Assembly: GCA_964016885.1 (NCBI GenBank)
Contig: OZ024741.1
Location: 359,972,001-360,036,000, forward strand
Direction of reading: 5' to 3'
Length of the DNA stretch: 64,000 nt
Source of the DNA: Eledone cirrhosa
Taxonomy: Eukaryota
Below, one piece after another: positions 3,348 to 42,036 of the stretch. The position numbers and the translations under genes were made by a program. Numbering within the stretch: position 1 is the first letter of the stretch; every line of letters starts with the position of its first letter. Below the pieces are notes generated by a model. It did no database searches. It saw nothing but the letters and a program-made list of their open reading frames with translations, and had not been told where the DNA came from.

Positions 3348-4367
3348 ATGTCCTGGATGGAAGCGCCGGAGGAGGTAGAGGATGAGATAGCTGCCGTGTG
3401 TCGGCTGACCGAGTTAGACCTGAAGGGGTTGCATGACATGCACCACATGGGGGTGGATAGGAGCCTGTTCCTAGCCAGGAGAATCGACTCGGACGTTAGC
3501 AGACACAGTGTTCGGGGGGTGGTTAGAGGCTGCGTCCGATGTCAGTCCATTGATCCCGCCCCGGGTGTACACGAAACGGGAAGCCTCCCGGTGGATCGCG
3601 ACTGGAAGCGATTAGCGGTGGATGTGACGCACTACCGGCAGGGAGCATACCTCTCGATGGTCGACTGTGGACCATGTCGAATGGCGATATGGAGGGAGAT
3701 GAGGACTGGAACAGCCGAGGAAATCGTGCGGACGTTGAGAGAGGTGTTCTTGGAGCGGGGCACTGTGGACGAACTGCTGATGGACAACAACGCAGCGTTC
3801 CGCTCGGAGGCACTGAGGGAGATGCTCGATGGATGGAAGGTGGACCGTTTCTTCAGAGCGGCGCACAGGCCGAGCGGGAATGGAATCGTGGAGCGACACC
3901 ACCGGACGATCAAGGCAATGGCGGAGTGGGGCCATATCTCACCAATGGAGGCAGTGTTCTGGTACAATATGTCCCCTCGGGTTGGACAGGTCGAGGAATC
4001 GGTGCCACACAGAGCAGTATTCAAATACGAGTGGCGGCACCCGTGCACGCCACCACAACGACCAGTGGGGAGAGAGAGTGCATTCGTGCAGGTGGGCGAA
4101 GAAGTCTGGGTTAAGCTCCCAGATGCACGTTGCACATCTCAATGGGGAAGGGGAACGGTGACGGCCGTAAATTCAAAGAACAATGTGTCCGTGGACGGGG
4201 TACCACGTCATGTCCTGGACGTAAGAAGAATCACTGTGTCGACGGACTCCGAGGAAGGGGAAACCCAAGATGAGGTGGAAACCCAGAGCCCTGCCCCAAT
4301 GCTACGAAGATCGCAACGAAGTCGTAGACCACCGACATGGCGGAGCGGGGCCATATCTCACCAGTGA
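3348..4367 (+). CDS. Gypsy-type integrase, antisense to the element's gag
   Basis: HHCC motif (HDMHHMG...CVRCQ), D (LAVDVTH), D (LLMDN), E (SGNGIVERHH) and a C-terminal SH3-like segment, all in one 339-aa ORF. Confidence 0.88.
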   Translation: MSWMEAPEEVEDEIAAVCRLTELDLKGLHDMHHMGVDRSLFLARRIDSDVSRHSVRGVVRGCVRCQSIDPAPGVHETGSLPVDRDWKRLAVDVTHYRQGAYLSMVDCGPCRMAIWREMRTGTAEEIVRTLREVFLERGTVDELLMDNNAAFRSEALREMLDGWKVDRFFRAAHRPSGNGIVERHHRTIKAMAEWGHISPMEAVFWYNMSPRVGQVEESVPHRAVFKYEWRHPCTPPQRPVGRESAFVQVGEEVWVKLPDARCTSQWGRGTVTAVNSKNNVSVDGVPRHVLDVRRITVSTDSEEGETQDEVETQSPAPMLRRSQRSRRPPTWRSGAISHQ

Positions 4368-4817
4368 ACGCATTTCCATCTCTTTATAACCCGGGACTTG
4401 CTGCAGTTTCACCGCTATGTCGTCCGGAAATCCATTGATGAACGCCAACCGCACCGTGCGTTCGCATTCCGCCTGGTAACCGGCCAACATAGCCAACCGC
4501 CTTATTTCCGCTGCGAAAATGTCGACGCGCTCACCATTCCACCTGATTCTCGCCAGCTTAGCAAAAGCCGCCAACGGTCCCTCGGCGAATGCATCCATCA
4601 GACGCCTCTCAATCTTCTGCACATCTCTTTGGCTGTGCTCGTCCAACTCAAGGAAGAGTACCAGCGCGTCGCCCTCGAGGTACAATGCCATGAGGCCGGC
4701 CACGTCCTCTATCTTCTGCAAGCTTGCGACCAGCCGAACCTTCCGCAGCCAAGCGACAACATCACCTTCCCCGGTGAATGCCCTGATAGCTTCGTTCATC
4801 CGTAGTCTTGTCGCCAT
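4302..4817 (-). CDS. Gypsy gag, N-terminal part (truncated)
   Basis: FTGEGDVVAWLRKV...LYLEGDAL...GERVDIFAAEIRRLA...AFINGFP, starting just downstream of the 5' LTR. Confidence 0.8.
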   Translation of the reverse strand: MATRLRMNEAIRAFTGEGDVVAWLRKVRLVASLQKIEDVAGLMALYLEGDALVLFLELDEHSQRDVQKIERRLMDAFAEGPLAAFAKLARIRWNGERVDIFAAEIRRLAMLAGYQAECERTVRLAFINGFPDDIAVKLQQVPGYKEMEMRSLVRYGPAPPCRWSTTSLRSS

Positions 4818-9355: not shown

Positions 9356-9406
9356 GCGTATGTGTGTGTGTATGCGTGCGTGTGTATAGATAGATAGATA
9401 GATAGA
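9306..9406. repeat. (TG)n plus (GATA)n microsatellite, 3' flank of Tx1-A copy 1
   Basis: Directly visible. Confidence 0.97.
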
Positions 9407-9621
9407 TTTCTTTATTTACCATAAAGGCATAAAAAGAAGGGACAAATACAAAGGGGGAGTTTACATATAATCGAGTAAAAAGGGTGTAACATGAAAATAA
9501 TCGAAAATAACCTCAAAAGGGAGGGGACGTGATGGGGGTTGCACACACCCCCGAAAAAGTGTGCAATCCTTTGCCCGGGGAGCACATGGAGAAGGTGCTC
9601 CCCTCTCCTTTACTTCTTTAC

Positions 9622-12600
9622 CTACAGGATGGTATACAGAGAAGGCCCATTTACACGAGCCATTCTCGCCACTATCACCCACCTTTCATAAAACTGCCTG
9701 TGGCCAAGCACCTCTCTCTCCATTCTTATCCTTCTTCCGAAGTGATATCGGAAGAAGTAGACCAGACTATGGCCAGAGAGGAAGTTGCCTGACCTCAGAC
9801 CTTTCAATCGTGTCCACCAAACAACCTCTTTCAACATGGCTATTACGCACAGAAAAACCGCCTTTGCTTCCTTTGTGAAGAGGGGAGGCGGTTTGATTGT
9901 CATCACGGACTCGGCGGTCAATTTAATCGGCGCCACCCGCGACAGCAGTTGTTCGGCGTAGCCCCACAGATCAGCCACGCCCGGACATTGCACCAATGCG
10001 TGCGCCACGGTTTCTTCGTGACGCACGCATCTAGGGCAAATCTTTTTTGAGGGATCCCTGCCCGGGCGCCCGTGTCTGTAGAGCCTCTCTCGAACGGGTA
10101 GAGCCCCTCGGTAGCACTGCCAGGCCAGTGACTTCTGGAAGTTGTCCATTGGTCCTGGGCCGAAAGTCCTACCGAACAGGCTGGCCAGTTCGTCTTCTTC
10201 CATGTCCAGCGACTCTCCAAGGGTGTCATCGCCCCTGCTAGCCACCAGCCCTCTATAGAATGATGAGGTGGATTCTCCACCGATGGCCCGGCCCGCTTGC
10301 CAGAGAGCCCTGAACGCCTGAGCACACTCAGTGTGCCAGTCTCCCAGTTTTCCGGATCTTTGCTTGACCCAGGACTGTAGCTCGGTGAGTGAGACGAGTC
10401 TCGGAAAGGCTCGTTTCACGAACGGAGCCCACACCGGTTGACCAGTGAGGAATACCTGTAGGTGCCGTAGCCTTAATGCGTGCCTACGCATCATCAACCA
10501 CGGCATCCCCAGCCCTCCTTTCGAAGGTTGTTGGCAGCAGATGGATCTTCTCACCATAGGAGGACGCTTCTTCCAAAGAAATTGGAAGAGCATGCGTTCC
10601 ATGGTGGTGAGTGTTTCCTTAGGGCAAGGCACGACAGTCAGGCGGTAGTAAGTGACGGACGCTATGTAAATGTTCGCCACCTCCGCCCGGCCTTTTAGGG
10701 ACAGCTTACACTTGGCCCATTTCTGGGTTAGTGCAAACACCTTGTTCGTAACCTCGTTCCAGTTCTTTTCCACCTGGAGGTCCGGTCCAAACCAGACCCC
10801 AAGCAACTTTACCGGGCCCTCCGTCCAGTGTCCGACGACACCATCGGGAGGCATCGGTCTGCCTCTCCACGTTCCGAGTTGCAGCCCGATGGATTTTTCC
10901 CGGTTCAGTTTCGCTCCTGACAACCTTTCGTACTCCTCCAGTAAGGTACCGATCGCCTCGATCTCCGAGTCGGTTGATACCATTACTGTTACGTCATCGG
11001 CGTAGGCCGACACCGCTTTGCTCAATCCTGGTTCCAGGGGGATACCCTGCAACAACTCCAACTTCCTCAGTAAAGGCTCGAGAGTCAATACGTACAGAAG
11101 GGAGGAGAGAGGGCACCCCTGTCGAATGGATCGTGTGATTTCGAACGGCTTCGAAAGGTAGCCGTTCACCTTGATCCTAGAACAGATGTGGTTGCTATGT
11201 AGGGCAGTGATCCAGCCTCTGAAAACAGGACCGAACCCAGCCGCCGCTAGCACCGCATCCAGGTAACCATGGTCGACCCTATCGAAGGCCTTAGACTGAT
11301 CCAAGTTGATCAGGGCCCCACCGAAGCCGGGTTTGTTGCCAACCCTCTCTATGATGTATCGCATGAGGTGGAGGTTATCGTGAATGGACCTGGATGGGAT
11401 AGCACATGTCTGCGCATCTCCCACCAGGCCACCCACGACAAGCGCCAACCTCTTTGCTAACACCTTGGCCAAAATCTTTAACTCTGTGTTTAGCAGGGTT
11501 ATGGGCCGAAAATTATTTATACTATCCCCCTTGTTCTCGTCCTTCCTCACCAGCGTGACTACGCCCTTGGCTACAGAACAAGGAATTCTCCCGTTCTGCT
11601 GCCAATTGCAGTAGACCGCTTCGAGGAGTTCGGAGAAGAAGACCGGCATTGCTAAATAAAGTTCGTAAGGTATACCATCGAGACCTGGAGATTTGCGTCT
11701 GCTGCATTGGCTCAGCGCATCTCCGATCTCATCAGCCGAGATTGGTCCCTCGCAGGACTCCGCCTCTTTGTTCGAGAGACGCGGCAGGCCGTCGAGGTAT
11801 GGACCGAAATCCACGCCCCGGCCCGGACCCTCGCCTCCCCCGAACAATCGGGCAAAGTGCTTTTGAAAGGCCTCGCACATCTGCTTAGGCTCCCGGATCA
11901 CTCGTCCATCTTCGTCTTGCAACGACCGGATGGTGGATCGATTTCCACTTTTAGCTTCTGTCACGCGGGCCCATCCAACGGCTTTGGCCCCCTCATTACC
12001 TAGAGCACGTATTTTACTTCGAATGACGCAGCCTTCATGCTTTGCATCGAAAAACTGGTTCAAGGCCGTCCTCGATGCCAGCACTCTGGCCACATCTTCG
12101 CTCTTGATTGCCTCTTCTAATTTACCTGTTAATTCTTTCTCGTTTCTATTCCTATTGGCAGCTAACATCTTGCTATAACTTATTGATTCTGTTCTAATCT
12201 CTCTTTTGAGAGATGCCCACCATCGGTTGTTGACGATTGCACCCGTCAACCTCTCCTTAACTAATCTGCTAATCCGGTTTCTGTAAGTCTCTTTTGCCGG
12301 TAAAGACAAATTAAGTTTCCAGTAACCGGGACCCTGTCTATGTGTTTTCTCGAGATTGACCACGCAGGTCACTAATTTGTGATCCGTGTAGCCAACCGTG
12401 CGCATTTCTGGACAGCTTAATATGTCCCTATCCTTACTTCTAACTAAGAATCTATCTAAGTACGATCTAGATTGACCACTGTGGTTTCTCCAAGTCCAGG
12501 TAGGCACAGTTGGAAAATCTAGTCGATATCTATCGACCAAGTTAAAACGGTCGAGTAACCCCTTGAGGCTGTTACACCCCCCTCTATTAGGACATGCTCC

Positions 12601-13059
12601 TGCATAGTCCCAACGTGCATCTAGGATGTCATTCCAATCCCCCGCTAGAAGCAGGGAACGCGACGTTCCCAGAAAAGTCTCCAAACGCTGGAAGAAGTCG
12701 GGCCGTTCAGCTCCGAAAGGGGAGTAGACGGCGACCAGTCTCAAGGCCGCACTTTCACTACTGCCAACGTCTAGCACCAACAAACGACCCTCCGGGTCCG
12801 AGTGCACAACCTGTACGGCAAGACCCAGGTGTTTTTGCAGCAGCACGACAACCCCACCCCCACCTCCAGGTTGACAGAGAGATGCATGCACCTCAAAGTC
12901 ATCGAAGGTGGGGGCCAGCTGCCGCATGACGCTGATTCGAGTCTCACAGATAACCATTACATTTATACTACATGACCTGAGGTCATTTAGAAGCTTTGCT
13001 TGCTTCCAAGTTGAGCCCAGGCCACGTGCATTCAAACATCCTACTCTTAACACATCCAT
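9622..13059 (-). CDS. ORF2: APE endonuclease, reverse transcriptase and C-terminal Cys/His knuckle (intact, 1145 aa)
   Basis: LNARG, ICET, AGDWN, SYLDRF, TDHK; GPGYWKLN; KSPGLDG, FRPITLLN, LDQSKAFD, IRQGCPLS, AYADD; CPRC...ETVAHALVQC. The L1/Tx1-type layout includes KxSLKGR and GGLGMP. Confidence 0.95.
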   Translation of the reverse strand: MDVLRVGCLNARGLGSTWKQAKLLNDLRSCSINVMVICETRISVMRQLAPTFDDFEVHASLCQPGGGGGVVVLLQKHLGLAVQVVHSDPEGRLLVLDVGSSESAALRLVAVYSPFGAERPDFFQRLETFLGTSRSLLLAGDWNDILDARWDYAGACPNRGGCNSLKGLLDRFNLVDRYRLDFPTVPTWTWRNHSGQSRSYLDRFLVRSKDRDILSCPEMRTVGYTDHKLVTCVVNLEKTHRQGPGYWKLNLSLPAKETYRNRISRLVKERLTGAIVNNRWWASLKREIRTESISYSKMLAANRNRNEKELTGKLEEAIKSEDVARVLASRTALNQFFDAKHEGCVIRSKIRALGNEGAKAVGWARVTEAKSGNRSTIRSLQDEDGRVIREPKQMCEAFQKHFARLFGGGEGPGRGVDFGPYLDGLPRLSNKEAESCEGPISADEIGDALSQCSRRKSPGLDGIPYELYLAMPVFFSELLEAVYCNWQQNGRIPCSVAKGVVTLVRKDENKGDSINNFRPITLLNTELKILAKVLAKRLALVVGGLVGDAQTCAIPSRSIHDNLHLMRYIIERVGNKPGFGGALINLDQSKAFDRVDHGYLDAVLAAAGFGPVFRGWITALHSNHICSRIKVNGYLSKPFEITRSIRQGCPLSSLLYVLTLEPLLRKLELLQGIPLEPGLSKAVSAYADDVTVMVSTDSEIEAIGTLLEEYERLSGAKLNREKSIGLQLGTWRGRPMPPDGVVGHWTEGPVKLLGVWFGPDLQVEKNWNEVTNKVFALTQKWAKCKLSLKGRAEVANIYIASVTYYRLTVVPCPKETLTTMERMLFQFLWKKRPPMVRRSICCQQPSKGGLGMPWLMMRRHALRLRHLQVFLTGQPVWAPFVKRAFPRLVSLTELQSWVKQRSGKLGDWHTECAQAFRALWQAGRAIGGESTSSFYRGLVASRGDDTLGESLDMEEDELASLFGRTFGPGPMDNFQKSLAWQCYRGALPVRERLYRHGRPGRDPSKKICPRCVRHEETVAHALVQCPGVADLWGYAEQLLSRVAPIKLTAESVMTIKPPPLFTKEAKAVFLCVIAMLKEVVWWTRLKGLRSGNFLSGHSLVYFFRYHFGRRIRMEREVLGHRQFYERWVIVARMARVNGPSLYTIL

Positions 13060-13092
13060 GTGGGCGGCAGAGCCAAAGGAGAGTGTAGAGAC

Positions 13093-14817
13093 CTACCTTT
13101 CCGCTTCCCGGGGTTCGGGTTGCACGACTTCCATGGGGTCGGGGGTGTTGGGTGAAGGGGTGTCTTGTGGTGGTGTGGGGTCGTCGGTGTGTGGTGGGGG
13201 TGGGGTGTTTGGAGTTGTGTTGGGGAGGGGAAGGGGAGGGGGAAAGCTTTTTAGTAGGACGCGGTTTATGGGTTTGACAGAGGGTGGTCCTACGTCCTCC
13301 TTAAAATCCTTTTTTAGTTTTTGGTAGAGGTTCATTGGGATTTTTATTAGTTTTAAATGTGGGTGGTTTTCTGATGAAACAAAGTTTACACCTTCGGTTT
13401 GTACCGAAGGATTATTGTATATGAGTTCATTTAATTTATTATTGTTTCTGTTGATGTAAGTATAGTGTAATGTCTTTTTTTCCGATGGTGTGAGTGTTTC
13501 GAAGAGGGGAGGGGCAGGTTTGGTTTTGTTTGTTGCTGGAGGGGTGTTTTCTGTTTTGTTAGATTGTGTTGCGATTTGGGTGGGGGTTGTTTGTCCTTGT
13601 GTGTTTTGCACATGTTTTCTTTTTTTCCTTTTAATCTGTCTGAAGGACTCCGTTTCTTCCTCCGAATTCGTTGGGTTATCTTCAGTGTTGGAGGGAAGAG
13701 GTATGTTTGCTGGTAATGTTTCCGTGTTGGTTTTCTTTGTGGGGGAGATGGATGTCACTATGTTAGACTGTGTTGTGTGTTGTGTCTGCGGTGGTTGTGT
13801 TGTTTTATTGAGTGAGAGGTTGGGTGGGCCTGTATTTTGTTTTGGGGTAATGTGTTGTGACTGTTTGTGTTGTGGTGGTGTTGTGGTGTTACTGAGGGAC
13901 GGGTTGGGTGGGACTGAGTTTTGTTGTTTGTTTATCTGTTGTGGTGGTGGTGGTGGAGCTGGTGTTGGTAGCAGGGTTTTCTTTTTGTTGAGTTGGGGAC
14001 AAGCGGCCTTCAGGTGCCCTCTGCCTGCACAGATATGGCAGGACGGCCTTCTCCCCTCCACGCTAATGTTTATATACCCGTGGTCCTCTAATAGGATTCT
14101 GTCGGGTATTTGGGCGATGCGTTCAGGCTTCATTTGTACTACCAGCTCTATACCTGTTCCACTGAACGCATTGCCTGTGGTTTTCCCAATGGAAATCACG
14201 TTGTCATTCACTGGATCGATGAAGCCAGCTATGAGCCAGCAGTAGTCCACATCTGGCATCATTGCATCCAGCCATATGCGTTGAGTTTTTTTCCCCATAT
14301 AAGATGGATAAAAGGTGAAATTTTTCGAACGAATCGGTGACAAAGCACATTTTTTTGCCGCCGATTCGTTCTTCATGATAATTGCTAGGCTTCCATACAG
14401 TCTGTCTTTTCTTATGAAAGTTGTTTCATTCAGTACTTCTGCGAGTACTGTTTTGATATCTGCTTGAGAAGGCTGTTCAGGTTTTTTTGTACTGTTGTTG
14501 ATGGTCCGAAACTTGACCGTTCGGCTTTCAATGTCTTTCGTGAATTCTTGAGGCATTTTTACCAATAAAATACCATTCTCACCTTCACTTATGTATTGTT
14601 TTGCGTCCGTGATCCTTCGTACCACATCTGAAATGTTTTCCGCTATATAAGTCAAAGATTTCTTTGTTTTCTGTGCAAATGAAATCTTGTCGTCTGCTTT
14701 GTTTTCTGATATTATGTTATTTTCAACTGTTATTTTTTTGTTTGTTGTGTCTTTGTTTGTGTTATTAGTATTGTCATGCAATTTTTCAAATTTTTTTTTC
14801 TTCGTTGTTTTCGTCAT
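13093..14817 (-). CDS. ORF1 of Tx1-A (CCHC zinc knuckle, Pro/Thr/Asn-rich tail); may really start at 14971
   Basis: CHICAGRGHLKAAC knuckle; lies upstream of ORF2. Confidence 0.88.
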   Translation of the reverse strand: MTKTTKKKKFEKLHDNTNNTNKDTTNKKITVENNIISENKADDKISFAQKTKKSLTYIAENISDVVRRITDAKQYISEGENGILLVKMPQEFTKDIESRTVKFRTINNSTKKPEQPSQADIKTVLAEVLNETTFIRKDRLYGSLAIIMKNESAAKKCALSPIRSKNFTFYPSYMGKKTQRIWLDAMMPDVDYCWLIAGFIDPVNDNVISIGKTTGNAFSGTGIELVVQMKPERIAQIPDRILLEDHGYINISVEGRRPSCHICAGRGHLKAACPQLNKKKTLLPTPAPPPPPQQINKQQNSVPPNPSLSNTTTPPQHKQSQHITPKQNTGPPNLSLNKTTQPPQTQHTTQSNIVTSISPTKKTNTETLPANIPLPSNTEDNPTNSEEETESFRQIKRKKRKHVQNTQGQTTPTQIATQSNKTENTPPATNKTKPAPPLFETLTPSEKKTLHYTYINRNNNKLNELIYNNPSVQTEGVNFVSSENHPHLKLIKIPMNLYQKLKKDFKEDVGPPSVKPINRVLLKSFPPPLPLPNTTPNTPPPPHTDDPTPPQDTPSPNTPDPMEVVQPEPREAER

Positions 14818-15432
14818 TTAATTTTTTCTCCGCAGATTCGTCCGTTTTTATTTTCATTTTTCCTTCCTTCTCTATGACGTTAGTTGGGAAGGAAGGGAGG
14901 ACTAAAGCGTGCGAGCTTACAACTCTTACCGCTGTCCCCCCACCACTATTTTCGTTCGCTGCGTTTAACATTTCTGTTAGACGATTGAAATTTTTTACAC
15001 AAATTTTTTTTTTAAAACAGGTTTTTCACCTCTAGGAGGGGTAAAGATGAGCTGACCCACCGCCTGACAGTTCAGACGGAGGGTCAAGCTACACAATTGT
15101 ATCAAAATTAAGTTTGAACTCACAAAATTTCCTCAATAAATTTGAACAAAACTTCTGTGCGAAGTGAATGACATCCACACTGTAGAACAGACGACAGCTA
15201 GATTCGATATAGATAGATTTCTTTATTTACCATAAAGGCATAAAAAGAAGGGACAAATACAAAGGGGGAGTTTACATATAATCGAGTAAAAAGGGTGTAA
15301 CATGAAAATAATCGAAAATAACCTCAAAAGGGAGGGGACGTGATGGGGGTTGCACACACCCCCGAAAAAGTGTGCAATCCTTTGCCCGGGGAGCACATGG
15401 AGAAGGTGCTCCCCTCTCCTTTACTTCTTTAC

Positions 15433-18400
15433 CTACAGGATGGTATACAGAGAAGGCCCATTTACACGAGCCATTCTCGCCACTATCACCCACCTTTCAT
15501 AAAACTGCCTGTGGCCAAGCACCTCTCTCTCCATTCTTATCCTTCTTCCGAAGTGATATCGGAAGAAGTAGACCAGACTATGGCCAGAGAGGAAGTTGCC
15601 TGACCTCAGACCTTTCAATCGTGTCCACCAAACAACCTCTTTCAACATGGCTATTACGCACAGAAAAACCGCCTTTGCTTCCTTTGTGAAGAGGGGAGGC
15701 GGTTTGATTGTCATCACGGACTCGGCCGTCAATTTAATCGGCGCCACCCGCGACAGCAGTTGTTCGGCGTAGCCCCACAGATCAGCCACGCCCGGACATT
15801 GCACCAATGCGTGCGCCACGGTTTCTTCGTGACGCACGCATCTAGGGCAAATCTTTTTTGAGGGATCCCTGCCCGGGCGCCCGTGTCTGTAGAGCCTCTC
15901 TCGAACGGGTAGAGCCCCTCGGTAGCACTGCCAGGCCAGTGACTTCTGGAAGTTGTCCATTGGTCCTGGGCCGAAAGTCCTACCGAACAGGCTGGCCAGT
16001 TCGTCTTCTTCCATGTCCAGCGACTCTCCAAGGGTGTCATCGCCCCTGCTAGCCACCAGCCCTCTATAGAATGATGAGGTGGATTCTCCACCGATGGCCC
16101 GGCCCGCTTGCCAGAGAGCCCTGAGCGCCTGAGCACACTCAGTGTGCCAGTCTCCCAGTTTTCCGGATCTTTGCTTGACCCAGGACTGTAGCTCGGTGAG
16201 TGAGACGAGTCTCGGAAAGGCTCGTTTCACGAACGGAGCCCACACCGGTTGACCAGTGAGGAATACCTGTAGGTGCCGTAGCCTTAATGCGTGCCTACGC
16301 ATCATCAACCACGGCATCCCCAGCCCTCCTTTCGAAGGTTGTTGGCAGCAGATGGATCTTCTCACCATAGGAGGACGCTTCTTCCAAAGAAATTGGAAGA
16401 GCATGCGTTCCATGGTGGTGAGTGTTTCCTTAGGGCAAGGCACGACAGTCAGGCGGTAGTAAGTGACGGACGCTATGTAAATGTTCGCCACCTCCGCCCG
16501 GCCTTTTAGGGACAGCTTACACTTGGCCCATTTCTGGGTTAGTGCAAACACCTTGTTCGTAACCTCGTTCCAGTTCTTTTCCACCTGGAGGTCCGGTCCA
16601 AACCAGACCCCAAGCAACTTTACCGGGCCCTCCGTCCAGTGTCCGACGACACCATCGGGAGGCATCGGTCTGCCTCTCCACGTTCCGAGTTGCAGCCCGA
16701 TGGATTTTTCCCGGTTCAGTTTCGCTCCTGACAACCTTTCGTACTCCTCCAGTAAGGTACCGATCGCCTCGATCTCCGAGTCGGTTGATACCATTACTGT
16801 TACGTCATCGGCGTAGGCCGACACCGCTTTGCTCAATCCTGGTTCCAGGGGGATACCCTGCAACAACTCCAACTTCCTCAGTAAAGGCTCGAGAGTCAAT
16901 ACGTACAGAAGGGAGGAGAGAGGGCACCCCTGTCGAATGGATCGTGTGATTTCGAACGGCTTCGAAAGGTAGCCGTTCACCTTGATCCTAGAACAGATGT
17001 GGTTGCTATGTAGGGCAGTGATCCAGCCTCTGAAAACAGGACCGAACCCAGCCGCCGCTAGCACCGCATCCAGGTAACCATGGTCGACCCTATCGAAGGC
17101 CTTAGACTGATCCAAGTTGATCAGGGCCCCACCGAAGCCGGGTTTGTTGCCAACCCTCTCTATGATGTATCGCATGAGGTGGAGGTTATCGTGAATGGAC
17201 CTGGATGGGATAGCACATGTCTGCGCATCTCCCACCAGGCCACCCACGACAAGCGCCAACCTCTTTGCTAACACCTTGGCCAAAATCTTTAACTCTGTGT
17301 TTAGCAGGGTTATGGGCCGAAAATTATTTATACTATCCCCCTTGTTCTCGTCCTTCCTCACCAGCGTGACTACGCCCTTGGCTACAGAACAAGGAATTCT
17401 CCCGTTCTGCTGCCAATTGCAGTAGACCGCTTCGAGGAGTTCGGAGAAGAAGACCGGCATTGCTAAATAAAGTTCGTAAGGTATACCATCGAGACCTGGA
17501 GATTTGCGTCTGCTGCATTGGCTCAGCGCATCTCCGATCTCATCAGCCGAGATTGGTCCCTCGCAGGACTCCGCCTCTTTGTTCGAGAGACGCGGCAGGC
17601 CGTCGAGGTATGGACCGAAATCCACGCCCCGGCCCGGACCCTCGCCTCCCCCGAACAATCGGGCAAAGTGCTTTTGAAAGGCCTCGCACATCTGCTTAGG
17701 CTCCCGGATCACTCGTCCATCTTCGTCTTGCAACGACCGGATGGTGGATCGATTTCCACTTTTAGCTTCTGTCACGCGGGCCCATCCAACGGCTTTGGCC
17801 CCCTCATTACCTAGAGCACGTATTTTACTTCGAATGACGCAGCCTTCATGCTTTGCATCGAAAAACTGGTTCAAGGCCGTCCTCGATGCCAGCACTCTGG
17901 CCACATCTTCGCTCTTGATTGCCTCTTCTAATTTACCTGTTAATTCTTTCTCGTTTCTATTCCTATTGGCAGCTAACATCTTGCTATAACTTATTGATTC
18001 TGTTCTAATCTCTCTTTTGAGAGATGCCCACCATCGGTTGTTGACGATTGCACCCGTCAACCTCTCCTTAACTAATCTGCTAATCCGGTTTCTGTAAGTC
18101 TCTTTTGCCGGTAAAGACAAATTAAGTTTCCAGTAACCGGGACCCTGTCTATGTGTTTTCTCGAGATTGACCACGCAGGTCACTAATTTGTGATCCGTGT
18201 AGCCAACCGTGCGCATTTCTGGACAGCTTAATATGTCCCTATCCTTACTTCTAACTAAGAATCTATCTAAGTACGATCTAGATTGACCACTGTGGTTTCT
18301 CCAAGTCCAGGTAGGCACAGTTGGAAAATCTAGTCGATATCTATCGACCAAGTTAAAACGGTCGAGTAACCCCTTGAGGCTGTTACACCCCCCTCTATTA

Positions 18401-18870
18401 GGACATGCTCCTGCATAGTCCCAACGTGCATCTAGGATGTCATTCCAATCCCCCGCTAGAAGCAGGGAACGCGACGTTCCCAGAAAAGTCTCCAAACGCT
18501 GGAAGAAGTCGGGCCGTTCAGCTCCGAAAGGGGAGTAGACGGCGACCAGTCTCAAGGCCGCACTTTCACTACTGCCAACGTCTAGCACCAACAAACGACC
18601 CTCCGGGTCCGAGTGCACAACCTGTACGGCAAGACCCAGGTGTTTTTGCATCAGCACGACAACCCCACCCCCACCTCCAGGTTGACAGAGAGATGCATGC
18701 ACCTCAAAGTCATCGAAGGTGGGGGCCAGCTGCCGCATGACGCTGATTCGAGTCTCACAGATAACCATTACATTTATACTACATGACCTGAGGTCATTTA
18801 GAAGCTTTGCTTGCTTCCAAGTTGAGCCCAGGCCACGTGCATTCAAACATCCTACTCTTAACACATCCAT
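15433..18870 (-). CDS. ORF2 (APE-RT) of Tx1-A copy 2, intact
   Basis: 1145 aa; differs from copy 1 by L>M (VVVLMQK) and F>L (AQALRAL). Confidence 0.95.
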   Translation of the reverse strand: MDVLRVGCLNARGLGSTWKQAKLLNDLRSCSINVMVICETRISVMRQLAPTFDDFEVHASLCQPGGGGGVVVLMQKHLGLAVQVVHSDPEGRLLVLDVGSSESAALRLVAVYSPFGAERPDFFQRLETFLGTSRSLLLAGDWNDILDARWDYAGACPNRGGCNSLKGLLDRFNLVDRYRLDFPTVPTWTWRNHSGQSRSYLDRFLVRSKDRDILSCPEMRTVGYTDHKLVTCVVNLEKTHRQGPGYWKLNLSLPAKETYRNRISRLVKERLTGAIVNNRWWASLKREIRTESISYSKMLAANRNRNEKELTGKLEEAIKSEDVARVLASRTALNQFFDAKHEGCVIRSKIRALGNEGAKAVGWARVTEAKSGNRSTIRSLQDEDGRVIREPKQMCEAFQKHFARLFGGGEGPGRGVDFGPYLDGLPRLSNKEAESCEGPISADEIGDALSQCSRRKSPGLDGIPYELYLAMPVFFSELLEAVYCNWQQNGRIPCSVAKGVVTLVRKDENKGDSINNFRPITLLNTELKILAKVLAKRLALVVGGLVGDAQTCAIPSRSIHDNLHLMRYIIERVGNKPGFGGALINLDQSKAFDRVDHGYLDAVLAAAGFGPVFRGWITALHSNHICSRIKVNGYLSKPFEITRSIRQGCPLSSLLYVLTLEPLLRKLELLQGIPLEPGLSKAVSAYADDVTVMVSTDSEIEAIGTLLEEYERLSGAKLNREKSIGLQLGTWRGRPMPPDGVVGHWTEGPVKLLGVWFGPDLQVEKNWNEVTNKVFALTQKWAKCKLSLKGRAEVANIYIASVTYYRLTVVPCPKETLTTMERMLFQFLWKKRPPMVRRSICCQQPSKGGLGMPWLMMRRHALRLRHLQVFLTGQPVWAPFVKRAFPRLVSLTELQSWVKQRSGKLGDWHTECAQALRALWQAGRAIGGESTSSFYRGLVASRGDDTLGESLDMEEDELASLFGRTFGPGPMDNFQKSLAWQCYRGALPVRERLYRHGRPGRDPSKKICPRCVRHEETVAHALVQCPGVADLWGYAEQLLSRVAPIKLTAESVMTIKPPPLFTKEAKAVFLCVIAMLKEVVWWTRLKGLRSGNFLSGHSLVYFFRYHFGRRIRMEREVLGHRQFYERWVIVARMARVNGPSLYTIL

Positions 18871-18903
18871 GTGGGCGGCAGAGCCAAAGGAGAGTGTAGA
18901 GAC

Positions 18904-20628
18904 CTACCTTTCCGCTTCCCGGGGTTCGGGTTGCACGACTTCCATGGGGTCGGGGGTGTTGGGTGAAGGGGTGTCTTGTGGTGGTGTGGGGTCGTCGGTG
19001 TGTGGTGGGGGTGGGGTGTTTGGAGTTGTGTTGGGGAGGGGAAGGGGAGGGGGAAAGCTTTTTAGTAGGACGCGGTTTATGGGTTTGACAGAGGGTGGTC
19101 CTACGTCCTCCTTAAAATCCTTTTTTAGTTTTTGGTAGAGGTTCATTGGGATTTTTATTAGTTTTAAATGTGGGTGGTTTTCTGATGAAACAAAGTTTAC
19201 ACCTTCGGTTTGTACCGAAGGATTATTGTATATGAGTTCATTTAATTTATTATTGTTTCTGTTGATGTAAGTATAGTGTAATGTCTTTTTTTCCGATGGT
19301 GTGAGTGTTTCGAAGAGGGGAGGGGCAGGTTTGGTTTTGTTTGTTGCTGGAGGGGTGTTTTCTGTTTTGTTAGATTGTGTTGCGATTTGGGTGGGGGTTG
19401 TTTGTCCTTGTGTGTTTTGCACATGTTTTCTTTTTTTCCTTTTAATCTGTCTGAAGGACTCCGTTTCTTCCTCCGAATTCGTTGGGTTATCTTCAGTGTT
19501 GGAGGGAAGAGGTATGTTTGCTGGTAATGTTTCCGTGTTGGTTTTCTTTGTGGGGGAGATGGATGTCACTATGTTAGACTGTGTTGTGTGTTGTGTCTGC
19601 GGTGGTTGTGTTGTTTTATTGAGTGAGAGGTTGGGTGGGCCTGTATTTTGTTTTGGGGTAATGTGTTGTGACTGTTTGTGTTGTGGTGGTGTTGTGGTGT
19701 TACTGAGGGACGGGTTGGGTGGGACTGAGTTTTGTTGTTTGTTTATCTGTTGTGGTGGTGGTGGTGGAGCTGGTGTTGGTAGCAGGGTTTTCTTTTTGTT
19801 GAGTTGGGGACAAGCGGCCTTCAGGTGCCCTCTGCCTGCACAGATATGGCAGGACGGCCTTCTCCCCTCCACGCTAATGTTTATATACCCGTGGTCCTCT
19901 AATAGGATTCTGTCGGGTATTTGGGCGATGCGTTCAGGCTTCATTTGTACTACCAGCTCTATACCTGTTCCACTGAACGCATTGCCTGTGGTTTTCCCAA
20001 TGGAAATCACGTTGTCATTCACTGGATCGATGAAGCCAGCTATGAGCCAGCAGTAGTCCACATCTGGCATCATTGCATCCAGCCATATGCGTTGAGTTTT
20101 TTTCCCCATATAAGATGGATAAAAGGTGAAATTTTTCGAACGAATCGGTGACAAAGCACATTTTTTTGCCGCCGATTCGTTCTTCATGATAATTGCTAGG
20201 CTTCCATACAGTCTGTCTTTTCTTATGAAAGTTGTTTCATTCAGTACTTCTGCGAGTACTGTTTTGATATCTGCTTGAGAAGGCTGTTCAGGTTTTTTTG
20301 TACTGTTGTTGATGGTCCGAAACTTGACCGTTCGGCTTTCAATGTCTTTCGTGAATTCTTGAGGCATTTTTACCAATAAAATACCATTCTCACCTTCACT
20401 TATGTATTGTTTTGCGTCCGTGATCCTTCGTACCACATCTGAAATGTTTTCCGCTATATAAGTCAAAGATTTCTTTGTTTTCTGTGCAAATGAAATCTTG
20501 TCGTCTGCTTTGTTTTCTGATATTATGTTATTTTCAACTGTTATTTTTTTGTTTGTTGTGTCTTTGTTTGTGTTATTAGTATTGTCATGCAATTTTTCAA
20601 ATTTTTTTTTCTTCGTTGTTTTCGTCAT
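18904..20628 (-). CDS. ORF1 of Tx1-A copy 2
   Basis: Same translation as copy 1. Confidence 0.88.
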   Translation of the reverse strand: MTKTTKKKKFEKLHDNTNNTNKDTTNKKITVENNIISENKADDKISFAQKTKKSLTYIAENISDVVRRITDAKQYISEGENGILLVKMPQEFTKDIESRTVKFRTINNSTKKPEQPSQADIKTVLAEVLNETTFIRKDRLYGSLAIIMKNESAAKKCALSPIRSKNFTFYPSYMGKKTQRIWLDAMMPDVDYCWLIAGFIDPVNDNVISIGKTTGNAFSGTGIELVVQMKPERIAQIPDRILLEDHGYINISVEGRRPSCHICAGRGHLKAACPQLNKKKTLLPTPAPPPPPQQINKQQNSVPPNPSLSNTTTPPQHKQSQHITPKQNTGPPNLSLNKTTQPPQTQHTTQSNIVTSISPTKKTNTETLPANIPLPSNTEDNPTNSEEETESFRQIKRKKRKHVQNTQGQTTPTQIATQSNKTENTPPATNKTKPAPPLFETLTPSEKKTLHYTYINRNNNKLNELIYNNPSVQTEGVNFVSSENHPHLKLIKIPMNLYQKLKKDFKEDVGPPSVKPINRVLLKSFPPPLPLPNTTPNTPPPPHTDDPTPPQDTPSPNTPDPMEVVQPEPREAER

Positions 20629-21019
20629 TTAATTTTTTCTCCGCAGATTCGTCCGTTTTTATTTTCATTTTTCCTTCCTTCTCTATGACGTTAGTTGGGA
20701 AGGAAGGGAGGACTAAAGCGTGCGAGCTTACAACTCTTACCGCTGTCCCCCCACCACTATTTTCGTTCGCTGCGTTTAACATTTCTGTTAGACGATTGAA
20801 ATTTTTTACACAAATTTTTTTTTTAAAACAGGTTTTTCACCTCTAGGAGGGGTAAAGATGAGCTGACCCACCGCCTGACAGTTCAGACGGAGGGTCAAGC
20901 TACACAATTGTATCAAAATTAAGTTTGAACTCACAAAATTTCCTCAATAAATTTGAACAAAACTTCTGTGCGAAGTGAATGACATCCACACTGTAGAACA
21001 GACGACAGCTAGATTCGAT

Positions 21020-21059
<40 letters not shown>

Positions 21060-30094: not shown

Positions 30095-30770
30095 CGTAGC
30101 ATCACTCAGCAAGACCTTTGTCAGCCGCTCTCCAGCTATCTTTTTAAAGCTGTATATAGCTATGGTGCGGCTACACTTAAAATTTGCATCACCAGTCAGG
30201 AACCCTTATCTTGCTCAGAACATTGACCACTTGGAAACTGTTCAGAGACGTGCAACCAAGCGAATACCCTCCATCAGGCATCTACGATACTCTGAGCGCC
30301 TTACTTCCCTGGGCATGGATACATTGAAGCACCGACGTCTGGCAACTGACTTGGTAAACACCCACAAAATTATCAACCATCTTGCCAACAACAACCCTGA
30401 GTACCTTTTTGATTTCCATGTTTCTAACTCACGTGGGCATGCCAACAAAGTCAGAAAACAGCACAGCTCCCATGACTTTCGGAAACATTTTTTCACGCTC
30501 AGAGTTGCTGAAGTATGGGACAAACTCCCTGCATCAGTTGTTAGCTGTCGAGACACTGCATCCTTTAAAACCTCCATGCTTCCTGAGATTCGCCAACACT
30601 ACACCTTATATACCCCCCTCCATACACACGTACACATGTATATCATGACTCAAACACTGTTCACTTCCCTGACATTTGTATATTATTCTATGTACTATAC
30701 ATGCACCTTTGATGAGCTGTAGTGCACCTGAGCACTGTACACAATAATTTCATTATTATTATTATTATTT
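30095..30770 (+). mobile_element. 5'-truncated CR1/L2-group LINE 3' end with (ATT)n tail
   Basis: VRLHLKFASPV.NPY...IDHLETVQRRATKRIP...YSERL..LG...RRL..DL...SRGH..K...RKHFFTLRV...WDKLP, then a short 3'UTR and (ATT)n. Confidence 0.85.
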
Positions 30771-32590: not shown

Positions 32591-32957
32591 CGATTTGGTA
32601 TTTTGTATTAATTTTTATTTGTTCATCTCAAAGTACATGCTTGCGTTACGCATGGTATTGGACGTACATGGAAAGTTGCTCTTTGGGTAGTGCATTTGTT
32701 GGCTGGCACTGAGATCATTATTACTATTATAACAGTATTGGTCATTGCTGTGTTGATTGAGGTGATATTGTTATGGTTGCAGCTGTAAGAGGTGTACAAG
32801 AATTTTCTCAACTGTTCTTGTGGTATGAGTGGTGTTGGTGGTGGTGGCAGGGAGATTAATGCTGGGGGTGGGGTGCTGGGAGTGGTAGTGGGTAGGGTGA
32901 CATTGTAGCTTATAGGAGTTGCTTCTCCGATGTTATTTTATTATTATTATTATTATT

Positions 32958-35954: not shown

Positions 35955-36020
<66 letters not shown>

Positions 36021-39000
36021 GAATGCTATGGTTGACGGAGGCTCGGCTCTGTAAGGTATTGTAAATTTTGACCGCTATAACAATTGTAAATTGTTTAAAA
36101 CTTTAACCAACTTGTAGACAAAAACACCCTCCTCCTCGTGAGAGGGGTCTTTCTGCCCGTTATTTGGCCCTTCGGGGTTAAATAACTGCTTATTGGGGTT
36201 TTGTGCCCAATATTTATTTTAAACAAAAAAACAACATGGCTACGAAAAAGAATTTTCATAGGTCACTCCCACTCATTCCGTCTTCTTCTTCCTCAATCGT
36301 CACTACAGCAGAGAGAAGATTGTCTCTCTCCCGCCCTTCTTTAAATGTGTCTCTCTCCCTCCCTTCTCTTTCGCAAGCGACGACAGAAAAGAAAAGTCTC
36401 GTGCAAAGCGTGTAAGATTTCTCCACGACGACGACGACAGCGACGAAACAGGTGTGCGGGAAATACGAAAACCCAGTTCATTCGTCTGACGACAGGAATA
36501 ATAGCAGTAGCAGCCGTAATAACAACAGCAACAGTGACAATGAAAACAACAGTAGCAGCCGCAACAGCATCAGCAGCAGCATAAACAACAACAGCATTAG
36601 CAGCAGCAACAACAACAACAACCACAGCAGCAGCGGCGGCGGCAGTAGTCGTAGTACCTGCAGCAACAACAAAAGTAACAGCAGCTCTGACGACAACAAC
36701 AACAACAACAGCAGCAAAGAAAAACCAATCTCGTTTGCAGGTATCGCAAAGAACCTGGAAACGATCCTCATAACAAATGAGGAATTAGAGGAAGCGAAGA
36801 AGATGGTGACAAAAACTGGACACCGAGCAATCTGCAAGGCAGCGGAAAAATTTTTCGAAACCCAACAGCACTGTACGGTCACGTACCGAACAGTAAGTAC
36901 AAAATCCCGTAGGGTTGGGGTCTGTGTGGCAGCGGAAAACGCACATCACCCGAGGCAAGAAATATGCCACCGTAGACGTACTTTTTGCCACACCCCAGGA
37001 GGCAAAGGATCAATCCTTAGTGACCCTAAGGAGCGAGGAAATGGTGTTGGTGCCCTCCTACTGCGGGCAAAAAATTGTGAGGGTCAAACTGACCCACGTC
37101 CCCCCCCGGGATGGCCCCTTCTTGGCTGGCCGCGTCTGTCCTCGTCGGAATCGAGGACAAAACAACTGTACTGCAAGTACAGAAAAAAGTAAGAGAAGAT
37201 TGGGTCGGCACCTCCATTGAGATGTTAATCCAAACCAACCAGGAGTGCATCGAAGCTATCCCGGATGTGATAGACTTCGATAACGGCACTCAATTGCCCA
37301 TAAGTGTTGAGGGCAAACGCCCGAAATGCTTTCCCTGTGGATCGAGGACTCACATCAGGGCCTTCTGCAACGAGAAGACCCTGAGAAAGGAGAAAACCCC
37401 CCTCCTTCCGAAACCGGCTCCACGGCTACCAGCAACAGGACAAGCGGCAACCAGGAACGATAGGTCCGTGGCACCCATACCCACGCCACGGAAATCAAAA
37501 ACAGCAGCAGCAGTGGAAGTATTAACAACAACAACAGCAATACCAAATGCAGCTGCAACAGAGACTCCAGTGCGAACATCACCACCAACAACAAGTGAAA
37601 GAGTGGAGCTGGTACCCCTCCCCGACCTCACAGAATCAGACATGGAGTGTGAGGTGGGAGGGGGATGGCACAAACGCAGAAGCAGCGCATCGTCGCCTTC
37701 GAAAATGGAGGAAAGAAATGAAAAAAGGGTAAAGGCTACTGCAAAGAGACTCACAGCAGCAACTCCACCAACACCATCACCACCCACACTAGCACCACCA
37801 TCACCCCGGCGACAACCCCACCGCCAACAACAACAACACCTTCAACACCACCACCACAAGCACCAACATCGCAAACACAACAACAAAACACACACACCCA
37901 GCAACAACGACAAGAAAATAGCAGAACCACACCCCACCCCCAGAAAAACAAATGCACAGCAATAAATACACACAACAAGAAACTAATGACTTACATAATT
38001 GAACACACAGACATTTCACAACACGACTACATAATACCAGCACCAATCAAAACGCCAACTAACATAAGACTGCTAAAAATAGCACAGAAACAATACACAA
38101 ACATTAAAACGAAATTCCCCAACGCAGTTGGTGATTTCAGAGACCTAGGAGGGACTCTCAATCGAAGAGTATATTCGGACATACTCATAGAAGAGCCGAC
38201 AACCAGCCGAAGGGACGATTCAGCGGTCCCTTCACCAGACGATCAAGTGAAAAGGGATGGAAAAAACCATCCCTCCTCTACGAAAAGTACGGTAAGTGGT
38301 CTTTCCCATCTTTTCCACTCTATTTTAAACATGACCTCACTCAGAATAAGCAGCATAAATGCGCGTGGATTGGGGTCGTCGTGGAAGAAGGGTCACCTGC
38401 TCAACGACCTCAGGTCACTAAACATAGATGTAGTGGCCATCAGCGAGACCAGAATCTCCGAAGCACGGGCCTTCGCACCGATCTTCGGCGGCTACGATGT
38501 GTACGCATCTCCCAGCCGTCCTGGATCGGAGGAGGAGTTGCTGTGCTTTTTCGGAGAGGTTTGGATCTCGCCATACAGGCCATCTTCCTGGACCCAGAGG
38601 GTAAGTTGGTGGTGCTGGACGTGACCAGCGGAGACGGGCAAGCTTTCAGGCTAGTGGCCGTCTATGCCCCGACAGGAGCAGGGCGGCCTGATTTCTTCCG
38701 GCGTCTGGAGACCTTTCTTGGAACGTCCCGCTCTTTAGTATTAGTGGGCGACTGGCACGGGATCTTAGATGCACGCTGGGACTGTGTGGGATTAGCGGAT
38801 AGGGGTGGAGGGTGCAAGAGCCTCAACAACCTGCTCAGGCGTTTTGAACTGTCTGACAGGTACCGATTGGATTTCCCGAATGTGCCAATGTGGACTTGGA
38901 CAAATCGCATATGGTCATCCAGATCATATCTAGATAGAGTATTTTGTAGGGAAATAGATAGGTCTAGCATAGGCTGTCCACAATTCAAGATAGTCAGCTA

Positions 39001-41974
39001 CACGGACCACAAATTCGTGATCTGTGTGCTTGACTTAGATAGGCTTCATAGACGAGGACCCGGCTACTGGAAGCTAAACGCGTCCTTACCAGCGCGCAAG
39101 GCCTACAGAGACCGGTTTAGCGAACTAGTTAAGCGGGCGTTGACGGGGGCCATCGTCAACAACAAGTGGTGGTTTGCTCTGAAAAGAGCGATTAGAATAG
39201 AATGCATTAGGTTTAGTAAGGCTTTAGCGATAGAGAAAAATAGAGCAGAGGGAGAACTAGTTAGAAAATTAGACGAGGCGCTTAGCAAAGGCATTGCGAC
39301 CGACGTGCTTGCGGCGAAATTGGCCCTTGACCAATTCTTCAATGCAAAGCACGAAGGCTGCGTTGTCAGAGCTAGGGTGCGTGCTCTCAGACACGAGGGC
39401 CCGAGTGGCGGAGGCGCGTCGTGGCAACAAAGCCACGATCCGGTCTTTGGTGGACCACGACGGGCGCATGCTACTCGATCCCGGGCAAATGTGTGAAGCT
39501 TTTCAGCGACACTTCACTCAGCTGTTCGGGGGCAGCGGTGGGCCGGGTCGAGGGATGGACTTTAGTGTCTACCTCGACGGACTGCCGCGGCTCTCGGCCA
39601 CTGAGGCGGAGTGTTGCGAAAAGCCGATAACAGCCGCTGAAGTAAGAGAGGCAATGACTGGCTGCTCAAGGGGTAAATCGCCTGGTTTGGATGGCCTGCC
39701 CTATGAACTTTACGTACAGATGCCAGACTTGGCGGACGTCTACTGCAACTGGCAACAGAACGGGAGAATTCCCAGTTCTGTGAGCCGAGGAGCGGTGGCA
39801 CTGCTGAGAAAGGATCCGAACAAGGGGGATAACATAGATCATTTCCGGCCCATAACTCTGCTAAACACAGAGTTCAAGATTTTGGCCAAGGTGCTAGCAA
39901 AGAGGTTGGCACTTGTCGTTGGTGGTCTGGTGGGAGAGGCGCAGACATGCGCCATTCCCGACAGATCCATCCACGACAACCTCCACCTCATGCGATACAT
40001 CGTAGAGAGGGTAGCTAGGGAACCTGGCACGAGTGGGTCCTTGATCAATTTAGATCAGTCGAAAGCTTTCGATAGCGTCGACCATCGTTACCTAGCGGCA
40101 GTCCTGATGGCGGCTGGCTTTGGGCCCGTCTTCAGAGGCTGGATCGCTGCCATGCACAGCGACATCTGCTCTGTGGTGAGAGTGAACGGTCACCTTTCGG
40201 AACCGTTCAACATCATGCGCTCGGTCCGCCAAGGATGTCCCCTCTCGTCCCTCTTGTACGTATTGACTCTCGAGCCATTACTGCACAAGCTGGAGACGTT
40301 GAGGGGGCGTCCCGCGCGAACTAGGATGCGGAAGATCCGTGTCAGCATATGCGGACGATGTCACCGTAGTGGTGTCGAACGCCAAACACATCGAGGCGAT
40401 CGGCACTACGCTAAGAGAATACGAAGCGGTGACAGGAGCAATGATCAACCAGGAAAAGTGAGTGGGCCTGCAGCTCGGCACCTGGAGAGGCAGGTCCATG
40501 CCGTCCAACAGCGTCGTCGGACGCTGGACGGACGGACCGGTTAAATTGCTAGGGGTCTGGTTCGGTCCGGACCTCCAGACGGACAAAAACTGGGACGAGG
40601 TGACGAGCAGGGTGGCTTCTCTCACCCAGAAATGGGCGGAGAGGAAGCTATCCCTGAAAGGTCGAGCGGAGGTGGCTAACGCGTACATCGCGTCTGTCAT
40701 CTGCTACCGCCTGACCGTCGTACCTTGTCCTAAGCCTCGCCTGACTGCGCTGGAGCGTTTGCTCTTTCGCTTTTTGTGGAAGGGACGCGCTCCGATGGTC
40801 AGGCGGTCCATCTGTTGTCAACACCCGCTACGTGGAGGGCTGGGCATGCCGTGGCTGATGATGCGCAGGCACGCGCTCAGGCTACGACATCTCCACCTCT
40901 TCCTCGACGGTGATCAGGTGTGGTCATCGTTTGCTAGACACGTATTTCCCCAGCTCGTTTCCTTGACGGAGCTGCAGTCCTGGGTCAAGCGAAGACCGAG
41001 AGGGAGCGCCTGGAGACTGGAATGTCTTCAGGCGCTCACAGCCCTCGACCAATCGGGCAATGTGATCGGTGGAAACTCCACCTCGGCGTTCTATAGAGGA
41101 TTAGTGGAGGGGAAGAGCGACGACGTACTTGGGGAACTCTAGGCGTCGACGAAAATCAACTAGCCAATCTCTTCGGAAGAACTTTCGGGCCAGGGCCTAT
41201 GGACAACTTCCAGAAATCTCTGGCCTGGCAGTGCTACCGAGGAGCCTTGCCAGTTCGGGATAAACTCTACAGGCATGGAGGTGCCGTCAGCCGGGCATGT
41301 CCGAGATGCGCGCAGGGAGACGAAACCGTCCTGCACGCACTCGTCCAGTGTCCGAAAATTTCTGACTTGTGGGTTTATGTCGAACACCTGCTGTCGCGTG
41401 TAGAACGGATCCGACTATCAGCTGAGTCCATCGTGAGGTGTGCCCCGCCCTCCCCCTTTAGCCGGGAAGGGCAGGCAGTTTCTATCTGTCTGGTGGCCAT
41501 GGCGAAAGAGATAGTATGGTGGACACGTTTGAAAGGGCTGAAGACGAACACTTACCTCTTCGGTGATGCCCTGATTAACTTTTTCAAATTTCATTTGAAA
41601 AGGAAAATCAGAGTAGAGAGAGAAGTGCTCTCTTCCCAGCATTTTGTTGAAAGATGGGTGAGAGAAGCAAGAATGGCCCGAGTGAATAGGCCGACTCTGA
41701 GTATGTGTCTGTAAATTAAAGGTGGAAAACTGGGAGAGGGCACTTGCCTTGGTGGTCAGGGTCACTGTGGCCTTTTACTGGGCTTTCTCCACAAATGTCC
41801 CTCCGAAGTCTCCCCCCTATTGGGGAATTTTTCATTGTTATTTTCATTGTTATTTTTGTTACATCCTCTGTTTTTGTTTTTTTACACGCAGAAATGCCCA
41901 TTTGTACCGTCCTGCATTGTCCTGCACTGTCCTTAATGTCTACTTTATGTAAACCCTTGTGGTTAATAAAGAAA

Positions 41975-41976
<2 letters not shown>
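36021..41976 (+). mobile_element. Full-length Tx1 family B element, frameshifted
   Basis: ORF1 remnants 36236-38295 (CFPCGSRTHIRAFC knuckle; Ser/Asn-rich N-terminus from AGC/AAC repeats). ORF2 from ATG 38331 to 41714 in pieces, clearly homologous to Tx1-A ORF2. Ends AATAAAGAAATC plus (ATT)~20. Confidence 0.92.
38331..41714 (+). pseudogene. Tx1-B ORF2 (APE-RT), several frameshifts and stops
   Basis: INARGLGSSWK, VGDWH, SYLDR, TDHK, KSPGLDG, LDQSKAFD, VRQGCPLS, YADD (frameshifted), CPRC...ETVLHALVQC. Confidence 0.9.

Positions 41977-42036
<60 letters not shown>

Follow-up and report, generated by a model that had tools for sequence, protein, structure and literature searches.

The analyzed window comprises 64,000 nucleotides of the Eledone cirrhosa genome (contig OZ024741.1, positions 359,972,001 to 360,036,000, forward strand) and contains two head-to-tail copies of an APE-RT LINE on the minus strand (family A), as well as one decayed copy of a second family on the plus strand (family B; Table 1). 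ORF2 matched the Pfam domains PF03372 (E = 5.8e-8) and PF00078 (E = 5.8e-27), i.e., an N-terminal APE endonuclease and a reverse transcriptase (RT), with the endonuclease weakly matching the L1 endonuclease and a C-terminal zf-RVT domain reaching 26.9 bits at a cut-off of 27.5. ORF1 had no Pfam match and no database homolog; a CX2CX4HX4C knuckle was recognized by eye. A separate ORF1 with a CCHC knuckle is a feature of the Tx1/L1 group of non-LTR retrotransposons; the name Tx1 is that of the preliminary description, and we refer to the elements as Tx1-like. Target preference for microsatellites, a feature of the Tx1 clade, was found here as well. Family A is flanked by (ATCT)n on both sides, which is its insertion site, (ATT)n being that of family B, and both families lie in tandem with other copies (window positions 9400–21050 and ~36000–41990, respectively). 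Tails could be called in 40 of 60 copies and were ATCT in families A, C, D, E, and F, and ATT in B, G, and H. In the 3.0-Gb genome, a first look revealed 1242 candidate loci for family A and 1494 for family B, of which 40 each were scored. Regarding the remainder of the window, an ORF with an integrase match (PF00665, below cut-off) and the gag-like ORF next to it (3348–4817) are probably the remnant of an LTR element, an ORF at 2–616 without Pfam match is presumably Helitron-like, and fragments of other RT-bearing elements are located at 30162–34397 and 57631–58311. A second donor-like site is present in the 5′ UTR of family A (14920–14930, minus strand).

Table 1. Features of the family A and family B elements in the 64,000-nt window.
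Feature	Position	Strand
Family A copy 1: 3′ AATAAA, followed by (ATCT)n tail/target	9411..9416	-
Family A copy 1: ORF2, 1145 aa (APE endonuclease, RT, weak zf-RVT)	9622..13059	-
Family A: candidate distal acceptor, ORF2-terminal TAG followed by purine-rich tract	9622..9627	-
Family A copy 1: proposed 51-nt micro-intron (not supported)	13046..13096	-
Family A copy 1: inter-ORF spacer, pyrimidine-rich, directly 3′ of donor	13060..13092	-
Family A copy 1: conserved 5′ splice site (-2 to +6), overlapping the ORF1 stop	13091..13098	-
Family A copy 1: ORF1, 574 aa, CX2CX4HX4C knuckle, no Pfam match	13093..14817	-
Family A copy 2, head to tail with copy 1 (ORF1 18904–20628, ORF2 15433–18870)	15433..20628	-
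Family A tandem copy 2: donor as in copy 1	18902..18909	-
Family B: chimeric junction, H-type ORF1 end at the H-family donor position/start of B2-type post-CAG sequence	38247..38248	+
Family B: B2-derived ORF1 tail from old (H) to present donor; 44 nt here, 43 nt in most copies	38248..38291	+
Family B: conserved 5′ splice site, overlapping the ORF1 stop	38290..38297	+
Family B: proposed 53-nt micro-intron (not supported)	38292..38344	+
Family B: ORF2, frameshifted in the window copy, TAA end	38331..41714	+
Family B: 3′ UTR T-rich tract and CAG, best-scoring family B acceptor (candidate)	41870..41891	+

The preliminary description had pointed to a splice donor at the end of ORF1, and the underlying sequence was confirmed. 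Family A carries the donor AAG/GTAGGT at 13096 (minus strand) with the ORF1 stop at +2 to +4 and a 33-nt spacer, so that 13096–13046 spans 51 nt, and copy 2 is identical at the junction 5811 bp further on; family B carries GTAAGT at 38292 with a 35-nt spacer, 38292–38344 spanning 53 nt. The junction was common to 30 of the 30 best family A loci (two of them the window's own), and GTAAGT was kept at 29 of 30 family B loci (one of them the window's). The claimed phase 2 within Arg codons applies to families A and B, but not to the long ORF1 frame of the window's own B copy, in which the donor is in phase 0; six B loci with unbroken ORF1 (533 codons or more) end in phase 2. One extra A near the ORF1 end of this copy creates the Met of 'MEKTIPP', and the homology between the ORF1 ends of A and B that had been based on this residue is spurious.

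Further families were collected by a pattern search that left out A and B and returned 301 places, of which 30 short loci and 40 full-length stretches were read, complemented by 20 loci from the 4134 places of a second pattern search and 20 loci from a protein search; the sample is pattern-biased and derives mostly from contig C1. Three loci without the motif were dropped. In total, 79 copies were clustered into 26 groups and merged to 12 families with at least two copies each. Four single-copy lineages, one with a decayed donor (L121), are kept outside the counts. The ORF2 alignment leaves out 15 rearranged, decayed, or redundant loci (L097, L098, L102, L117, L127, L130, L134, L144, L182, L187–189, and L196–198), and the junction count over the 12 families excludes L111, L132, and L180 with broken junctions. 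Splice-site and Kozak consensus sequences and the usual minimum intron sizes were used as background. Between representatives of neighbouring families, ORF1 DNA was far more diverged (~67–85% identity) than ORF2 (~77–99%).

By family majority, donor positions -2, -1, +1, +2, +5, and +6 were invariant in 12 of 12 families, position +3 agreed in 11 and +4 in 10 of them, and flanking positions in 5–10; for comparison, four-fold sites of ORF2 were invariant in only 52 of 241 columns. All three stop codons (TAA, TAG, and TGA) occur at the end of ORF1, each followed by GT. Families G and H have the donor in phase 1 and the stop shifted to +6 to +8, as judged from two unbroken frames in G16, and from the longest frames of decayed copies together with peptide homology in G17 and H. 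In family F, the ORF1 stop lies 112 nt upstream of the donor in eight of ten copies. Of the 242–377 GT sites per representative copy, the donor alone matched U1 best in 10 of the 13 copies and shared first place in two more, and the spacer following it consists of 76–87% C/T across families. We conclude that the donor is under constraint, independent of ORF1 stop and phase. A common 1-nt donor deletion with GTGAGT kept and the phase shifted characterizes an E-type subfamily (L236, L238, L239, and L242). In the distant relatives P0004 and P0080 (~40% identity), G-K-C precedes the ORF2 Met by five residues, which at the protein level fits a donor read in frame. In L216, the one distant element found in a metagenome, the spacer is AT-rich and the stretch covered contains no donor, and the MALNVASLN family was absent from genome G000 by pattern search.

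The donor had been proposed to pair with an AG at codon 5 of ORF2, so that removal of a micro-intron would fuse ORF1 to ORF2. Such introns would measure 36–61 nt and are in frame in six of the 12 families, namely in A, B, C, and I via codon 5, and in E2 and E3 with a CAG 7 nt before the ORF2 AUG as acceptor and a TTAAC-like branch motif. In the other six (D, D2, F, G16, G17, and H), fusion at the first AG is out of frame or impossible, and these include families with unbroken ORF2 copies (L141, L179, L181, and L183–185); family D, to which L141 belongs, has motifs that are common among the first 100 of the 4134 places. In the ten families having the codon-5 AG, it ranked 61st to 234th of ~260 AGs when scored with consensus-type splice-site weights, and the pyrimidine tract lies beside the donor instead of beside the AG. 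Removal would furthermore delete the ORF2 AUG, which 11 of 12 families retain, mostly with A at -3. AGR codons are kept in at least 10 of 12 families at 32 of 61 conserved Arg columns, so that their retention at codon 5 is ordinary. The junction alignment upholds the donor, with GT at +5/+6 invariant in 12 of 12 families, but gives the AGR no special standing, and the claim that the junction exceeds chance holds for the donor as best U1 match and fails for the acceptor. A fusion RNA would encode its own RT and should be copied; nevertheless, the suggested genome search, run over non-donor continuations of the ORF1 end in families A, C, D, and E, revealed no copy lacking the micro-intron beside 2485 unspliced ones. 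A chimeric lineage described below (chimera X) has even reached 17 places with a donor that is no longer in phase. Based on these comparisons, fusion by micro-intron removal is for the most part refuted in its general form, and we consider it highly improbable as the route of ORF2 expression. Nor does readthrough, which had been named as an alternative, hold across the families: the two ORFs share a frame in just 4 of 11, and one family A copy (L196) lacks the ORF1 stop.

At least as improbable is a longer intron of ~110–130 nt that would end at a conserved YAG/G at ORF2 nt 83 and yield an in-frame fusion or an ORF1 variant. All 12 families retain this AG, in phase 2, and one D copy (L202/L227), in which the donor is joined to nt 84, misses an exact splice by a single G. 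However, the splice would remove the first 28 residues of the endonuclease, it would be out of frame in G and H, and the search for spliced DNA copies returned no exact nt-83 product. The G missing from L202/L227 at this site is also absent from L253 and L254.

A junction search requiring a break at the donor returned 29 matches, comprising 16 of chimera X, 3 of chimera Y, 9 local indels, and one 128-nt deletion (L227). Together with family B, chimeras X and Y make up three chimeric lineages, in each of which the ORF1 of one family is cut exactly at the donor and joined after a CAG near the ORF1 end of another element. In chimera X, an E-type ORF1 ends at the donor and continues as C-type sequence from directly behind a GTGCAG, at a point 23 nt before the C donor; the join is also present in one degenerate copy (L200), and CCCTAAT lies shortly upstream of the CAG in L107 and L152. 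In chimera Y (three matches and L243), the E3 donor is joined after CCGCCAG, ~75 nt upstream in an X-type copy, and since the 3′ parts of X and Y have common variants, both were counted as two events. Family B was not selected by any junction search and the joint was thus found independently: its ORF1 is 82–92% like H up to the H donor and 94–98% like B2 after it, which is the only internal donor end of such kind among 26 representatives. At an AG/GTC control site, six matches were found beside 4184 copies, all of them local and none an inter-family join, including one 45-nt microhomology deletion ending at AG (L255). The independent joins number three, two of which come from searches requiring the break at the donor, and all of them have an AG microhomology that allows template switching.

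The chimeras join families of the same tail type. Among the first 100 of the 4134 places, we picked by eye 12 same-strand pairs 5.6–6.1 kb apart, of which 10 were of mixed family, and such mixed tandem arrays offer substrate for the joins. In the simplest reading, the joins would be splices of read-through RNA from mixed arrays that were subsequently retrotransposed, and the donor has likely let families swap ORF1. Alternatively, the motif could be an inherited stop-codon context or reinitiation signal that resembles a donor, with the chimeras as microhomology template switches. The families are indeed related, with synonymous sites not saturated (0.50–0.85 identity), every join has the common AG, and in-register family switches occur elsewhere (L152). 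Against this, the motif stays fixed where the stop moves away (G, H, and F), varies only among the three commonest hexamers of the donor consensus, and is the best GT of the element, and the unselected family B junction falls exactly on the donor. We therefore regard an inherited context as improbable, though less so than either fusion model.

Besides being conserved, the donor at the ORF1 end is probably active. Our preferred, still tentative reading, to which we assign a probability of about 45%, is that it is spliced to distant downstream acceptors, giving an ORF1-only mRNA and thereby extra packaging protein, while ORF2 would be translated from its own start on unspliced RNA. C/U-rich sequences act as TIA-1-type enhancers of U1 binding, and the C/U-rich spacer may help U1 in this manner. 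The usual acceptor within the element would be the YTGTAG that ends ORF2, or a YAG in the 3′ UTR of B; with either acceptor, ORF2 would behave as a retained intron. In addition, poly(A) signals within ORF1 may be suppressed by U1 bound to the unspliced RNA. A somewhat less probable extension holds that the retained intron sets the ratio of ORF1p to ORF2p, and that the same donor swaps ORF1 modules across tandem arrays of families nested in each other's microsatellite tails, by which family B would have been founded.

In 11 of 12 families, a purine-rich tract follows the YTR-TAG that terminates ORF2; family B has TAA, but a strong YAG in the 3′ UTR. In the frame matched to the donor, a stop follows the ORF2-end site within 0–1 codons in 7 of 11 families; E3, D, D2, and B have no such stop, nor do the two C copies L116 and L152. 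Retention of the TAG lies within the null, since G is likewise preserved by 11 or more of the 12 families at 19 of 60 K/E/Q columns. Among 117 conserved AG columns, the ORF2-end AG takes no more than 8th place. Candidate acceptors are the ORF2 end and nt 83, 415, 1841, and 2807, with nt 1841 scoring best; the chimeras show cryptic acceptors in the next element, not the proposed normal one. ORF2 of LINEs prefers to act in cis. Searches for spliced copies, which covered A, C, D, and E, revealed no ORF2-less DNA copy; this is expected if ORF2 acts in cis, and lends no support to the model. Assembled contigs of unlabelled run type on family A (X1, X2, X5, and X6 over 12400–13700; X1 and X5 over 9405–15205) contained no joint from the donor, and an X1 contig was unbroken across the candidate acceptor at 9622; as contigs drop rare variants, this speaks neither for nor against splicing. 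X1 depth amounted to 75–90 for contigs of ORF1 and 32 for the first contig of ORF2, contig depth being unable to rank the parts. One X1 contig joins window positions 10562 and 11679 with five other letters between them.

It is conceivable, if rather unlikely, that the donor serves as a U1 anchor only, i.e., for suppression of premature poly(A) or for RNA stability or localisation, with splicing as rare leakage that leaves chimeras. Consistent with this, no acceptor is conserved above the null, and in 12 of 13 representative copies, 1–7 AATAAA/ATTAAA hexamers precede the donor or are absent only where the copy lacks its 5′ part or has one of H-type; a hexamer lies at about -290 to -345 in 9 of 13 representatives, and ORF2 has 0–2. 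A poly(A) signal of HIV-1 is suppressed from a donor that lies 195 nt further downstream (PMC3694450), and both roles of U1 are described for EVD (PMC5580714). However, the hexamers around -300 can result from the encoded protein (Leu-Ile-Lys codons in A), nothing would tie a pure anchor to the end of ORF1, and the donor is the exact breakpoint of three lineages. The fallback idea of the preliminary description, in which U1 acts at the site in a role other than micro-intron removal, is supported.

The closest parallel to splicing into an ORF1-only mRNA is the Copia element EVD of Arabidopsis, in which U1 binding yields an RNA for the structural protein only and also protects the full-length RNA (PMC5580714). 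In both systems, the structural gene carries a conserved donor close to its end, which is more telling than the acceptor. EVD, however, is an LTR element with a single GAG-POL frame, whereas the present elements are two-ORF LINEs, and its splice creates a stop and is coupled to early termination, whereas here the stop usually lies inside the donor and the spliced isoform is putative. Human L1 likewise has functional donors, and its spliced RNAs retrotranspose and leave genomic copies (SpIREs, PMC5860796; SpORF2, PMC2896524). In the portions of these reports available, L1 splicing takes place within the 5′ UTR or between 5′ UTR and ORF1, or yields an ORF2-only RNA, in contrast to the donor at the ORF1 end described here; also unlike L1, the present chimeras founded spreading lineages, one with ~1500 candidate copies. 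In mRNA/LINE-1 chimeras, upstream exons ending at donors are similarly joined to LINE acceptors and retrotransposed, and cis- or trans-splicing was inferred from the junctions (PMC13174262); those chimeras capture host exons, whereas here the ORF1 of one element replaces that of another. The major splice donor of HIV-1 and foamy virus, a U1 site at the 5′ end of the retroviral RNA, suppresses a poly(A) signal in its vicinity, even when located downstream of it (PMC3694450); the present donor lies at the end of ORF1, and its poly(A) role is putative. Kibi and Koshi of the Tx1 clade are animal APE-RT LINEs with a microsatellite preference as well, differing from the (ATCT)n and (ATT)n targets here, and the accessible part of their description gives no splice feature (PMC4494074). 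Our literature search found no donor at the ORF1 end of a Tx1/L1 element, with subscription papers, Repbase, and supplements largely outside its scope and novelty accordingly unproven.

The excess of ORF1 over ORF2 protein in LINEs is usually ascribed to translational reinitiation. The invariant donor at the ORF1 end points to a layer of splicing or U1 control so far shown for LTR elements, and the chimeras would represent a concrete, testable route by which LINE families could exchange ORF1. Host transcripts could moreover be mis-spliced owing to thousands of copies that each carry their element's strongest donor.

AUG-independent translation of ORF2 is known for L1. In family F, ORF2 carries ATA instead of ATG in all ten copies, but is still open (1145 aa; L183–L185, L191, and L194), and the ORF1 stop lies 147 nt before the ORF2 start. 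The two subgroups of the family differ by 17 synonymous and 8 non-synonymous fixed changes in ORF2. The ATA start suggests AUG-independent translation of ORF2 in this family.
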